From positions 1 to 64,000 of the IMG/VR virus record IMGVR_UViG_3300046780_000148: 64,000 bases of DNA; one strand, 5' to 3'. Below, piece after piece: positions 17,931 to 20,474 of the stretch. This DNA is from a virus. The first letter of the stretch is position 1. Every line of letters starts with the position of its first letter. The notes beneath the pieces were generated by a model, which searched no databases, was not told the DNA's origin, and saw only the letters and a list, made by a program, of their open reading frames with translations. Made by a program: the position numbers and the translations under genes.

Positions 17931-18335
17931 ATGAGTACGTATTTTAGCGCAATGTATCCTGTTCCGGGCCCCATCAAACGTCAGTTTGCGTTTGACCCGG
18001 CAATTGTACCTGTCGCGCCCCTGTGGAGCTCTGTAAAGAGTCACCGTGCTGCGCACGACGACTTTGAAACTTGGTGGGATCAAGGATTCCAAACACGACT
18101 CTTGATCCGCATCAAGTTCCACGAGGGCTTAACCCGAATCATCCCCAAATGGGACTTGACGGATACACGAATCGTCATGCGACCCATCGGGGAGTTCTGC
18201 AAGAAAGCGTACCAAGATGCGAAGAATCACCACGCGAAGAAGAGTCGGTGGTGGCGCACAGGCAATGCACAATTCAACGAGAAAATTGCATCGAAAAATT
18301 CTTCGATTGCCCCGTTGATTGTCTCTGAAGCATAG
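17931..18335 (+). CDS. Hypothetical protein
   Basis: GAGG RBS downstream of promoter. Confidence 0.6.
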   Translation: MSTYFSAMYPVPGPIKRQFAFDPAIVPVAPLWSSVKSHRAAHDDFETWWDQGFQTRLLIRIKFHEGLTRIIPKWDLTDTRIVMRPIGEFCKKAYQDAKNHHAKKSRWWRTGNAQFNEKIASKNSSIAPLIVSEA

Positions 18336-18343
18336 ACTATTAT
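18315..18343 (+). promoter_or_regulatory. Promoter for the protein + ncRNA unit
   Basis: TTGATT-17-TATTAT with upstream AAAAATT. Confidence 0.6.
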
Positions 18344-18405
18344 TAAGGAGTAGCAAAACCATGGGAAGTAAATCCCGAACCCGCGCAAACCAAGGAGCAG
18401 TAAAC

Positions 18406-19092
18406 GTGTCTACCCCGTTCGATACCGCAGAAGAGACCGAGACCGTCGAAGAGAACACCACGGTCGACGAGACCGAAGAGCTTCCGACCGAAGAGGTTGC
18501 CGAGGTCGACGTGCCCGAAGCACTCGACGACGAAGAGACCGATGCGCCGGCCGAGCCTGTTACCCCCGCAACGGGTGAGAAGGCTCCGAAGGCCGAGAAG
18601 GCTCCGAAGGCTCCGAAGGCTCCGGCTCGCGATTCCGCGCCGGAAGGTTATGTCACCGCGGTCGAGTTCGCCAAGATCCTGACGGCGCACCTCGAGGCGC
18701 AGGGCGCGAGCAACAAGAACGGCAAGATCACGACCAAGTCGGCCGAGGAGCCGGGTAACCCGATTCCGCCGCAGCAGATCTACAGCACGATCAACCAGTA
18801 CAAGGGTAAGACGGACGCGAAGAACCCGTTCCCGACGTACACCTCCTTCAAGGATGGTACGGTTCAGCCCACTGCCACTGCATCGGCTCCGACGGCCGAG
18901 AACCCGATCAGCCGCGAGTGGCTCGTGAAGGCCGAAGAGGCGCTGGCGTGGTGGGACGCTAAGGCGACCCGCGTTGCCGCTTCGAAGACCTCCAAGGCGG
19001 AGAAGGAAGCTGCGAAGGCTGCGAAGGCTGCTGCGACTCCGGTCGTCGAGGCTGAGGCTACCACCGACGCCGAAGTTGTCGAAGCTGAATGA
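18406..19092 (+). CDS. Putative nucleic-acid-binding protein (acidic N-terminus, KAP repeats, AK-rich tail)
   Basis: AAGGAG RBS before GTG; strongly biased codons; TAVEFAK...PQQIY core; alternative start 18361. Confidence 0.75.
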   Translation: MSTPFDTAEETETVEENTTVDETEELPTEEVAEVDVPEALDDEETDAPAEPVTPATGEKAPKAEKAPKAPKAPARDSAPEGYVTAVEFAKILTAHLEAQGASNKNGKITTKSAEEPGNPIPPQQIYSTINQYKGKTDAKNPFPTYTSFKDGTVQPTATASAPTAENPISREWLVKAEEALAWWDAKATRVAASKTSKAEKEAAKAAKAAATPVVEAEATTDAEVVEAE

Positions 19093-19187
19093 TCTCCAAG
19101 CTCCTTAACTAGCTGCGGTCCTATAGAGGGCGAGCTAGTTAAGGTTAGACCGGTGCACGTCGTTGTCGCATCCGACGTGCACCACTT

Positions 19188-19256
19188 GGGCACGTGGTGT
19201 AATTACTGCACCTCCGAGCTTATCGGAAGGTAGAGGTGTAAATCCTCTCGTGCCCT
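19188..19256 (+). ncRNA. tRNA-like cloverleaf with 5-nt anticodon loop (non-canonical)
   Basis: GGGCACG/CGTGCCC acceptor, GTGT/GCAC D stem, TCCGA/TCGGA stem with loop GCTTA, AGAGG-TGTAAAT-CCTCT T arm. Confidence 0.65.
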
Positions 19257-19314
19257 CGGGAATGACAGCGCCACTGTTTGGGGTTCCATCCTTCAAACCA
19301 GGAAGACTGTCAAG

Positions 19315-19421
19315 GTGGATGATGGACTCAGTTGGCAGAGTCTCCTCAGCTGTGCGCGCCCTTCTCGGGTTGGGAAGGCGATAGCTTAGGACGTTCGTAG
19401 GTTCGAATCCTACCATCCATC
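19315..19421 (+). ncRNA. tRNA-like RNA, anticodon arm replaced by long hairpin
   Basis: GTGGATG/CATCCAT acceptor; GACTC-AGTTGGCA-GAGTC D arm; GTAGG-TTCGAAT-CCTAC T arm; ~49-nt irregular hairpin in anticodon position. Confidence 0.8.
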
Positions 19422-19491
19422 CTGGTGTAGAGATCGTATCCAGTTCACACCTGACGATCTCTATACCTTTACTACAACACAAGGAGATGCG

Positions 19492-19776
19492 ATGGCACGA
19501 AGTGGTAAGCCCCAGGTTGGAAAAGAGAAGTACATCGCCCAGCGTACGACGAAGGATCGGTACGAGCCTCGTCAGCGGACGGTTGGTGGGGTAGTATCTG
19601 AAGGTCAGATTAAGATCGATCAGAGTACTTCGTACAGCGATATCACGAGGAACTACTTGGATCGTTTCCAAGGCGTCCCTACCATTACCGAGTTCGATCT
19701 TCTTCAGATCGACAAGAAGTGGCGTACGATCGGTAAGAAGGCCGAGGCAGGTATCCTGCTCGGGGCTAAGTACTAA
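19492..19776 (+). CDS. Small basic hypothetical protein inside ncRNA island
   Basis: AAGGAGATGCGATG start context. Confidence 0.7.
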   Translation: MARSGKPQVGKEKYIAQRTTKDRYEPRQRTVGGVVSEGQIKIDQSTSYSDITRNYLDRFQGVPTITEFDLLQIDKKWRTIGKKAEAGILLGAKY

Positions 19777-19780
19777 AGCT

Positions 19781-19892
19781 TGCTGGGTAGTTGTATGGGT
19801 AAAATACCTCAATCGCAAATGCTGACGGGCATGATGTATGCCTTCCCCCAAGGTGTACGGAGGAGAAGGTGGTTCGAGTCCACCCCCGGTAA
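19781..19892 (+). ncRNA. tRNA-like RNA with inserted anticodon arm
   Basis: TGCTGGG/CCCGGTA acceptor; GGTGG-TTCGAGT-CCACC T arm; CCTC/GAGG closes a ~49-nt insert; weak D arm. Confidence 0.65.
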
Positions 19893-20019
19893 CGATCTGT
19901 CTGGTGCGTTGATGTCGGTTACTTCTTGCGGATGATTATACCGGCAAAGTTGTATTGATCTCAGACAGTGTACGTGGGTACGAGATATAAGCAGATGCCC
20001 TGTCATGGCTATTAACTGC

Positions 20020-20288
20020 GGGGATTGATCACCCTAGGGACTTCAGCTGTCAATGAAACTCGTACTCATGATCAAAGCATGGGGATATGCGCCCGGAGCC
20101 GTAAGCAAACTACGGCCAATGAACAGAGCGGCTGTTGGATCAGTGCAACTAGCGAAAAGTCTCATGGTCTCTTATCTGCCTGTACAACGAAAGCTAAAGT
20201 CACAGGAGCATGCCAGATAAACGGATCGGTGAGTAAGTACCGAAAGCCCCAGCAGTGGTCGGAGGTTTGATTCCTTCTTTCCTCACAA
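20020..20288 (+). ncRNA. Large tRNA/tmRNA-like RNA with ~200-nt internal domain
   Basis: GGGGA/TCCTC partial acceptor, TGGTC + GGAGG-TTTGATT-CCTTC T arm, long-range TACTCATGATC/GATCGGTGAGTA pairing. Confidence 0.45.
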
Positions 20289-20406
20289 TCGTGCGGCATA
20301 TGCTTGGATGCAAGGCGAATATGCAATCGAGAGATTGTGCAGCCGAGGCCCACGAGTAAGTTCCCCATTGACCGGAGGTAACCCCCGAGGCGATGGCTCG
20401 GAAGAT

Positions 20407-20474
20407 AAAAGGGCTGTACTAGCGTCACGCGTTCCACGGAAGATACGCGATCTCACTAGTACAGCCCTTTTATT
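20407..20474 (+). terminator. Intrinsic terminator-like inverted repeat closing ncRNA island
   Basis: AAAAGGGCTGTACTAG...CTAGTACAGCCCTTTT (16-bp perfect IR) followed by ATT. Confidence 0.7.

Follow-up and report, generated by a model that had tools for sequence, protein, structure and literature searches.

tRNA-shaped genes lacking an ordinary anticodon loop in the tRNA island of a soil siphophage

Five transfer RNA (tRNA)-shaped genes, none of which reads codons as written, are kept in the complete genome of a lytic soil siphophage of 72.8 kb. All reside in the stretch of DNA analyzed here (the window), which is the first 64 kb (positions 1 to 64,000) of the virus record IMGVR_UViG_3300046780_000148; the record measures 72,847 bp, and is 100% complete by CheckV. 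Four genes, called A to D, lie in the variable tRNA-gene island of a phage clade, between two conserved early genes, and the fifth, E, lies outside of the island. The acceptor stem and the T arm are kept in all five elements, the 7-nucleotide (nt) anticodon loop in none, and no U33-bearing 7-nt loop on a 5-bp stem is found in A–E. Judged by their sequence as written, the elements lack the loop which defines a tRNA, and are tRNA-like rather than tRNAs. The reading preferred here, held with slightly less than even confidence, is that they specify non-decoding tRNA-shaped RNAs, which would be excised from a transcript by the tRNA-processing enzymes of the host. The customary explanations for tRNA genes in phages are codon supply and evasion of host nucleases which cut tRNAs. 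If the RNAs described here are made and processed, the tRNA shape would serve non-decoding ends, such as operon punctuation, RNA stability, mimicry or scaffolding.

The elements were identified by a covariance model (R1) derived from 18 tRNAs of related phages, none from the window, which was run over the window with filters off. At E ≤ 0.01 R1 yielded five matches, all on the + strand and all outside likely coding sequences (scores in Table 1; the E-values are rough, the calibration having been shortened). The next match is unrelated, and scores 12.5 bits (E 0.48). An initial annotation, made from the letters alone, had proposed four tRNA-like bodies in the island, and these correspond to A–D, all of which match R1. 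A strict scan for a T-psi-C type T arm and 7/7 acceptor pairs, extended to both strands of the whole genome, returned four elements (A, B, C and E), all intergenic and on the + strand; 20 shuffled genomes gave one in total. These four elements have 7/7 acceptor pairs and 5/5 T-stem pairs, while D fails the scan, having 6/7 acceptor pairs. A relaxed motif scan (6/7 acceptor pairs, looser loops) gave 63 matches versus 28–56 in ten shuffles, and was dismissed as noise. A–E qualify as members of a clade-specific tRNA-like set defined by R1 (E 6e-7 to 7e-3), as they share strand and genomic position with the elements of the relatives.

Standard annotation is blind to these elements. At default settings ARAGORN found no tRNA gene and no transfer-messenger RNA (tmRNA) in the window, and Rfam, at gathering scores and with standard filters, found no match there. 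In sensitive mode, the Rfam tRNA model RF00005 (gathering score 29 bits) matches C at 36.3 bits, with 49 nt where the model has 9, and D at 17.5 bits (E 2.3); A, B and E are unlisted at E ≤ 10. When introns are allowed (-i), ARAGORN recovers B, and also E at the default threshold; C is found with -i -ps90. ARAGORN calls obtained at lowered thresholds inside coding regions (as at 19575–19684, in ORF2) were treated as false. Other types of RNA were considered and rejected. A tmRNA is at odds with the empty ARAGORN search, with the acceptor stems of A, B, C and E, none of which has the G3:U70 pair, and with the lack of a tag reading frame. A group I intron is at odds with the size of the inserts, 32–40 nt versus about 200 nt or more for a self-splicing core, and no Rfam intron match was obtained. 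A sensitive Rfam search of region 18900–20600 (E ≤ 10) detected no hepatitis delta virus (HDV)-like or other ribozyme, no GOLLD, no ROOL and no intron family, and no GOLLD, ROOL or HDV-like/theta ribozyme was found in the window at gathering scores.

Elements B, C and E are normal in their D and T arms, keep the D-loop/T-loop partners, and carry 32–40 extra nt each. In B the acceptor stem, the D arm (with GG) and the T arm are canonical, and the anticodon arm is stretched to a hairpin of about 49 nt, 41 nt being present where R1 has 9. C features a 7-bp acceptor stem, a canonical T arm and about 40 extra nt at the 3' side of the anticodon loop (41 nt where R1 has 1). In E about 39 extra nt reside in the anticodon loop (50 nt where R1 has 11). 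This element is placed between two genes, 4 kb 3' of the island; it starts 6 nt after a stop codon (24528), and its 3' end lies a few nt short of the next ribosome-binding site, as is the case for many elements of the clade. A combines an acceptor stem of 7 bp, a D hairpin of 6 bp lacking GG, an 'anticodon' loop of 5 nt and a T loop not of the T-psi-C type; its free fold is a cloverleaf (z −3.6; z values, here and below, measure folding relative to shuffled sequences). D is made by the acceptor stem and the T arm only, 16 nt replacing the D and anticodon arms.

Relatives were collected as 84 loci (64 unique), fetched with an alignment of open reading frame 1 (ORF1), the gene preceding the island; they reside in soil metagenome and viral contigs of about 50–63 kb. 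The strict scan of the 64 unique loci gave 74 matches, all on the ORF1 strand, versus 1 in shuffled sequences. Elements of at least 96 nt account for 22 of the 74 matches, or 20 of 72 distinct T arms. R1 found 89 matches at E ≤ 0.01, including the 18 sequences it was trained on; every match is on the + strand, and 20 are 96–140 nt long. In the Rfam alignments of oversized elements (35–53 bits), the anticodon stem is kept, and 22–75 nt replace the 7-nt loop. By default, ARAGORN assigns a 3-nt anticodon to 18 of 52 short elements, and to none of the 20 long ones. With introns allowed, 11 of the 20 are called, and the 'intron' sites are scattered; among three homologous oversized elements, two are labelled differently (Trp versus Asn), and the third is not called.

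Inserts can be compared in the few oversized elements which are homologous. In 139–140-nt elements of three contigs (L018:3392–3531, L020:3646–3785, L066:4698–4837) the core of the insert has 32 of 51 invariant columns, while the flanks, at the place of the anticodon stem and loop, have 2 of 19 and 4 of 24. In a second homologous pair the figures are 23 of 32 for the core, and 7 of 18 and 5 of 14 for the flanks. Cores are better conserved than flanks, the reverse of the pattern expected of introns that are discarded. The middle domains of 23 long elements are modestly structured (mean z −1.34; 9 of 23 below −2). The core of about 50 nt shared by the three 139–140-nt elements folds with an asymmetric internal loop. 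A tight pattern of the core, searched over viral contigs, matched 8 loci, and was true only in 2 contigs already known; a loose pattern matched 120 loci, none with the extended motif, and was set aside.

B, C and E may alternatively be viewed as intron-containing tRNA genes, which would give working tRNAs upon removal of the insert, as proposed for Lak megaphages; we regard this as improbable. The inserts do lie in the anticodon loop, with the anticodon stems preserved, 'enigmatic introns' are a precedent in phage tRNAs, as set out in the available part of a preprint (Devoto et al., bioRxiv 10.1101/356790), and in C and E the removal of one 39–40-nt block would restore a loop of 7 nt in which position 33 is U and position 37 a purine. 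The predicted insertion sites differ, however, being 31/32 in E and 38/39 in C; both elements are labelled 'Ala(CGC)' by ARAGORN, yet neither has G3:U70; homologous oversized elements receive the conflicting anticodons mentioned above; and conservation is higher in inserts than in flanks. Bacteria are not known to have a machinery for short introns, and none is encoded by the phage genome. PF01974, PF01139 and PF09414, used as a test for phage-encoded splicing endonucleases and RtcB-type ligases, have no match in the complete genome, and six-frame family searches of the genome found no RtcB, tRNA-intron endonuclease, RNA ligase, CCA-adding enzyme, tyrosine integrase or resolvase; the same enzyme classes are absent among 50 ORFs scanned against Pfam. 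No bulge-helix-bulge was seen in C by eye, a weak test made without a formal search. Finally, splicing could not rescue A or D.

According to the preferred reading, of non-decoding RNAs excised from a transcript, the island would be transcribed together with the flanking genes, and the tRNA shapes would be cut out by host RNase P at the 5' ends, and by RNase Z or exonucleases at the 3' ends. RNase P, 3'-end enzymes and the CCA-adding enzyme recognize the acceptor stem and the T arm, and RNase P needs no more. Because host enzymes would cut the tRNA shapes out, the elements would punctuate the transcript, separating messages from each other. For the message located 5' of A, the end would fall 4 nt beyond two strong hairpins, and these would shield it from 3' exonucleases. 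Stable non-decoding tRNA-shaped RNAs of 55–113 nt would be released, and the inserted hairpin domains may carry a function of their own. Transcription, cleavage and stability are presumed steps; the anatomy and the comparative pattern were observed directly. The 44 nt immediately 5' of the elements are more structured, in the clade at large (mean z −1.19, 30% below −2), than control windows 300 nt away (mean z −0.21, 6% below −2). The initial annotation had viewed the tRNA-like units as possible punctuation, which would release intervening small RNAs. Punctuation fits, and receives indirect support from, the acceptor stem and T arm kept in A–E, the reduction of D to these two parts, and the structured upstream 44 nt; the small RNAs do not fare as well, as the long 3' spacer has no excess structure. 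The released products would more plausibly be tRNA-shaped RNAs and flanking messages than intervening small RNAs.

Four hairpins of the island, the terminator-like one at its 3' end included, are strong, well outside what chance would give. Perfect hairpins at 19103–19144 (12 bp) and 19152–19183 (11 bp), whose joint z is given in Table 1, are found in tandem and end 4 nt 5' of A; they may form a protective 3' end, or a terminator without U run. The 14-bp hairpin which follows B is trailed by a short U-containing tail, and looks like a terminator or a processing site. The initial annotation had listed these three stems along with three others, which are weak: the TGACAG/CTGTCA stem at 19263–19312 is present in the sequence, but has a z of −0.26, the stem at 19897–19968 one of −1.2, and the segment 20288–20405, which includes the GAGA-capped stem placed at 20296–20401, one of −1.6. 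The picture of about 1.4 kb of packed, near-continuous hairpins is overstated, since the 513 nt at 19893–20405 fold as shuffled sequences do (z −0.02 on the + strand, +1.27 on the − strand). The terminator-like inverted repeat placed at the end of the unit was confirmed. Its 18-nt arms (20405–20473) are 100% complementary and a U run follows; with its stable G+C-containing hairpin and U run, 20405–20480 is a candidate intrinsic terminator. A simple terminator scan, restricted to loops of 3–8 nt, could not reach this hairpin, whose loop measures 33 nt. Perfect hairpins with stems of at least 11 bp and loops of 3–40 nt are 9 in the whole 72.8-kb genome, 3 of which in the island; ten shuffled genomes have 5 in total.

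Some data weigh against excised RNAs with a punctuating role. The hairpins at 19103–19183 and 19424–19467 could be true terminators; the picture of a single transcript would then be broken. The inserts of B, C and E are of modest stability (z −1.5, −1.0 and −1.3, respectively). The conserved cores found in relatives suggest that the released RNA, rather than the cut, may be under selection, and for the window elements, which have no homologues, selection on the inserts would be argued from relatives only. The relatives also keep ordinary tRNAs in the island; the role of the ancestral island would therefore have been decoding, and the window set could be a decayed remnant.

It is conceivable, if somewhat unlikely, that the released tRNA-shaped RNAs are themselves functional, the tRNA scaffold ensuring processing and stability of the hairpin module it carries; the module might be a decoy or sponge for host nucleases or enzymes directed against tRNAs, or a protein-binding site. 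The insert cores are the best-conserved part of the oversized elements of relatives, D-loop/T-loop partners are kept in B, C and E, and G3:U70 is found in 5 of 20 oversized elements of relatives (L015:5957–6053, L019:2050–2161, L020:5626–5731, L028:2865–2963, L074:5418–5528). G3:U70 is the alanine identity pair, and by analogy with tmRNA such elements could be charged without an anticodon. Yet the window elements have no G3:U70, the one conserved core is found in only 3 contigs of the clade, and no insert motif is common to the window elements and any relative; B, C and E do not share insert sequences with each other either. Exact patterns of the T arm and acceptor stem of E and C, searched in viral contigs, gave 0 and 0 matches. 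A broader possibility, about which we have marked doubts, is that the tRNA fold became a carrier for general use in this clade of 50–73-kb soil siphophages. A novel type of phage non-coding RNA would be at hand, all members being non-decoding in the present genome: about one-fifth of the tRNA-shaped genes of the clade would have conserved, structured modules of 20–75 nt in place of the anticodon loop, would be matured by host tRNA enzymes, and would work as punctuation, decoys or carriers of functional hairpins.

The region, described in the initial annotation as a self-contained unit, is not a self-standing novelty, but the clade's variable tRNA-gene island, set between the conserved early genes ORF1 and 20786 (the latter named by its position). 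Of the 84 loci, 77 have a homologue of ORF1, 63 one of the 20786 gene and 59 one of the 21395 gene; the small ORF at 20562 has no homologue there. The synteny check suggested in the initial annotation was done on 43 unique loci having both flanking genes. The gap between the two genes ranges from 438 to 2529 nt (median 1055), and measures 1693 nt in the window; a strict element is found in the gap in 17 loci, and upstream of ORF1 in 18. In the closest relatives, the island hosts ordinary tRNAs (Rfam 55–73 bits). The elements of the window might then be tRNA pseudogenes without present function, decaying from an ancestral working island, a view to which we give a low probability. Ordinary tRNAs at the same place are in keeping with it, as is the state of D, a stump, and of A, which lacks the D-loop and T-loop signatures; moreover, the adjacent 0.5 kb is unstructured, non-coding and unconserved. 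Decay, however, is expected to hit all stems, and A, B, C and E keep the acceptor and T stems, changes being restricted to the anticodon loop. Across the clade, 20 of 89 elements show this pattern again, and compact phage genomes seldom keep 1.2 kb of dead DNA.

Additional features were noticed in relatives. The tRNA at L006:763–834 (Rfam 55 bits), located right after the ORF1 homologue, has the anticodon CTA, which would read the amber stop codon, and is labelled 'Pyl' by ARAGORN. In 78 elements (loci L001–L082 and the window), the discriminator is followed by C in 73 cases, with G as the second base in 60; genes therefore end in N73-C-G instead of CCA, and this ending may be a clade-specific signal for 3'-end processing. 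A tRNA-shaped family of about 14 members (family H; e.g. L017:1123–1201, L018:2462–2544, L066:3787–3862) has a single base separating the acceptor stem from a 6-bp D hairpin, which is capped by a tetraloop; the 'anticodon' arm is variable, and GGAAGYG is conserved just 5' of the T arm. The covariation count of the family is partly circular, as members were picked for paired stems; element A of the window resembles family H in the D arm only. A conserved sequence of about 45 nt (A-rich, GAGCCCC, A-run, then TTCAAGATCC-like) is found 3' of tRNA-like genes in a subclade (L015:3752, L020:3790, L024:172, L026:220, L028:3719, L032:3798), but not in the window; it may be a phage promoter or operator. 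A type II hammerhead ribozyme match at L074:1548–1609 is below threshold (30.4 bits versus a gathering score of 37, E 0.037).

The island of the window includes the four co-oriented genes A–D, one orphan gene for a basic protein (ORF2), about 0.5 kb of unstructured spacer and the strong terminator-like hairpin (Table 1). The promoter placed at 18315 in the initial annotation is matched by a promoter-like site, which has 9 of 12 consensus positions; a scan of 4 kb found 9 promoter-like sites versus 3.1 ± 1.8 in 50 shuffles. Two promoter-like blocks, at 20508–20559 and, 5' of another gene, at 29444–29495, agree at 78% of positions over 54 nt, and probably represent a repeated phage promoter; a strong ribosome-binding site comes after each. 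Coding potential was expressed as a codon score, the mean of which, in known genes, is 0.33 bits per codon for in-frame windows and −0.50 off-frame. The long overlapping ORFs, whose translation the initial annotation had named as the alternative to structured RNA, are not coding-like: the ORFs at 19893–20405 and a 238-aa antisense ORF range from −0.25 to 0.00, those of the spacer 19893–20230 lying between −0.07 and −0.25. Translated comparison (tblastx) of 19893–20560 to the relatives gave nothing. At the DNA level, the island has only a 44-nt low-complexity match to phage records, in ORF1, and only a 20-nt T-arm match to the 84 related loci, which do not share its hairpins.

Table 1. Features of the tRNA island and of element E in the window
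Feature	Position	Strand	Basis
Promoter-like site	18315–18343	+	TTGATT, 17-nt spacer, TATTAT; 9/12 consensus positions; consensus match only
ORF1	18361–19092 (alternative GTG start 18406)	+	homologues and codon score
Tandem perfect hairpins	19103–19183	+	z −6.1
tRNA-like A	19188–19256	+	R1 28.6 bits, E 2.3e-5; strict scan; free fold
Weak 6-bp closing stem between A and B	19263–19312	+	z −0.26
tRNA-like B	19315–19421	+	R1 33.1 bits, E 1.4e-6; ARAGORN -i; fold
14-bp hairpin directly 3' of B	19424–19467	+	z −5.4
ORF2	19492–19776	+	codon score, isoelectric point; AAGGAG ribosome-binding site upstream
tRNA-like C	19781–19892	+	R1 25.6 bits, E 1.5e-4; sensitive Rfam; ARAGORN -i -ps90
Non-coding spacer, includes the 19897–19968 stem	19893–20230	+	codon scores, tblastx, shuffles
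tRNA-like D	20231–20285	+	R1 19.4 bits, E 0.0067
Spacer with GAGA-capped short stem	20286–20404	+	segment 20288–20405, z −1.6
Intrinsic-terminator-like hairpin	20405–20480	+	18-nt arms, 33-nt loop, then U run, z −8.9
Next promoter-like block, downstream unit boundary	20509–20545	+	read from sequence
tRNA-like E, outside the island	24535–24648	+	R1 34.4 bits, E 6.3e-7 (best of all); ARAGORN -i

ORF1 is coding-like (0.52 bits per codon). In its product, an acidic tail at the N-terminus and a KAP repeat precede the conserved globular core, which is followed by an AK-rich tail with an acidic tip. The initial annotation described it as a basic KAP/AK-rich protein; the repeats are there, but the protein is acidic overall (isoelectric point 4.5, 44 D+E versus 23 K+R). 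At E ≤ 0.001, 35 homologues were found among 7297 candidates; no Pfam or PHROG family was matched, and no prophage relative was found in a scan of 185,579 species genomes. The core is modelled by AlphaFold with a predicted local distance difference test (pLDDT) score above 90. Its best match by VIA-align is 6hn7_B (Z 5.8, root-mean-square deviation 2.8 over 71 residues), followed by BldC, three excisionases and MerR-family entries (Z 3.7–4.5); with Foldseek, the PDB and BFVD libraries had no match at E ≤ 0.001, and a profile search of PDB sequences gave 0. The modelled core thus weakly resembles a DNA-binding fold of the Xis/MerR type. The single 94-aa basic ORF of the initial annotation, ORF2, was confirmed as such, having an isoelectric point of 9.8 and a codon score, 0.41 bits per codon, in the coding range. 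Its sole database match is itself; it has no Pfam or PHROG family, no Atlas lead and no tblastn match in the 84 related loci, and its Atlas structure model is poor (pLDDT 0.36).

Both proteins had been suggested as candidate partners in ribonucleoproteins, and this suggestion found no support. As a ribonucleoprotein operon, the region would produce the hairpins between tRNA-like units as small RNAs, and ORF1 and ORF2 as their protein partners. Genes are indeed co-oriented in one candidate transcription unit, strong hairpins flank A and B, and ORF2 is small and basic. We nevertheless deem such an operon highly improbable, as ORF1 is acidic, with a core weakly similar to DNA-binding folds, none of the 84 related loci has ORF2, relatives do not conserve the hairpins, and most of the proposed structured RNA is unstructured.

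The window also encodes a SNF2 helicase, a PD-(D/E)XK nuclease, a primase-helicase, a family A DNA polymerase, QueC, a tape-measure protein, a tail tube protein and a GH25 lysin. Because of this set of replication, tail and lysin genes, the virus is regarded as a tailed phage of a bacterium. The DNA polymerase reaches no more than 29.5% identity with that of any isolated phage, so the genome is far from isolated phages, and the tail tube protein has one match, over 46 residues. The only run in which this stretch was found is soil metagenome DNA, probably the source sample. The DNA polymerase (40863–43232) has an N-terminal domain of the uracil-DNA-glycosylase superfamily (Pfam UDG, E 1.2e-23). 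QueC, GTP cyclohydrolase I, a 6-pyruvoyl-tetrahydropterin-synthase-like protein and a radical-SAM protein, encoded by 35431–36333 and other ORFs, make up the 7-deazaguanine (preQ0) pathway, which phages use to modify their own DNA.

The gene content also bears on the origin of the inserts. The anticodon loop, where the inserts are placed, is a known hot spot of integrating elements, and one could imagine small mobile DNA insertions that target the anticodon loops of tRNA genes. The chances of this are very slim: the inserts of B, C and E share no sequence mutually or with those of relatives, measure 32–40 nt, and have neither a replacement gene nor terminal repeats; the genome has no integrase or resolvase, and neither a repeated insert at several tRNA genes nor empty and filled alleles have been seen so far.

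Similarities to known systems are found at several levels. As in phage tRNA clusters, the tRNA-shaped genes are co-oriented, reside in the early region, are packed between protein genes, and presumably form a multi-gene precursor cut by host RNase P. The tRNA region of T4 also encodes two stable non-tRNA RNAs, which are processed with the tRNAs. In contrast to phage tRNA clusters, none of the five elements here has a 7-nt anticodon loop, and all are missed by ARAGORN and Rfam defaults. tmRNA and the bacterial Y-RNA-like YrlA are tRNA mimics in which the anticodon domain has been replaced. Here too the acceptor stem and the T arm (plus the D arm) are kept, and the anticodon domain is swapped for another module; the elements differ in having no tag reading frame, no pseudoknots and no G3:U70, and their topology is not permuted, unlike that of YrlA. 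Punctuation of multi-gene transcripts by tRNAs is known in animal mitochondria, and RNase P sites occur in bacterial operons. In the window, tRNA shapes located between coding regions would similarly direct the endonucleolytic separation of messages, but mitochondrial tRNAs also decode, which the elements here apparently cannot do.

Theta (HDV-like) ribozymes, which are found immediately 3' of phage tRNAs and shape tRNA ends, are likewise structured RNA elements adjoining phage tRNAs, as described in the available sections of Kienbeck et al. 2024 (PMC10879173); they differ from the island in being ribozymes, no family of which was found there by the sensitive Rfam search. Full-text literature searches retrieved no paper on anticodon-less tRNA-like genes in mid-sized phages, and no mid-sized phage clade in which elements with conserved inserts are common and one complete genome has solely non-decoding ones. 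The nearest is the preprint on the Lak megaphages of gut Prevotella (Devoto et al., bioRxiv 10.1101/356790), whose Table S6 is possibly relevant. According to its available part, oversized tRNAs with 'enigmatic introns' are found in these phages; as here, they are too long for bacterial tRNA finders, have extra sequence in the anticodon region and come with no known removal mechanism. In contrast to that part of the Lak data, the present elements reside in a clade of 50–73-kb soil siphophages, inserts are better conserved than flanks, and A and D are beyond splicing. Oversized phage tRNAs are thus already known from Lak phages, and their common, conserved-insert forms in a mid-sized clade appear to be the new aspect. 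Should the RNAs prove to be made and processed, small genomes would offer a way of testing the question of 'enigmatic introns' in phage tRNAs.

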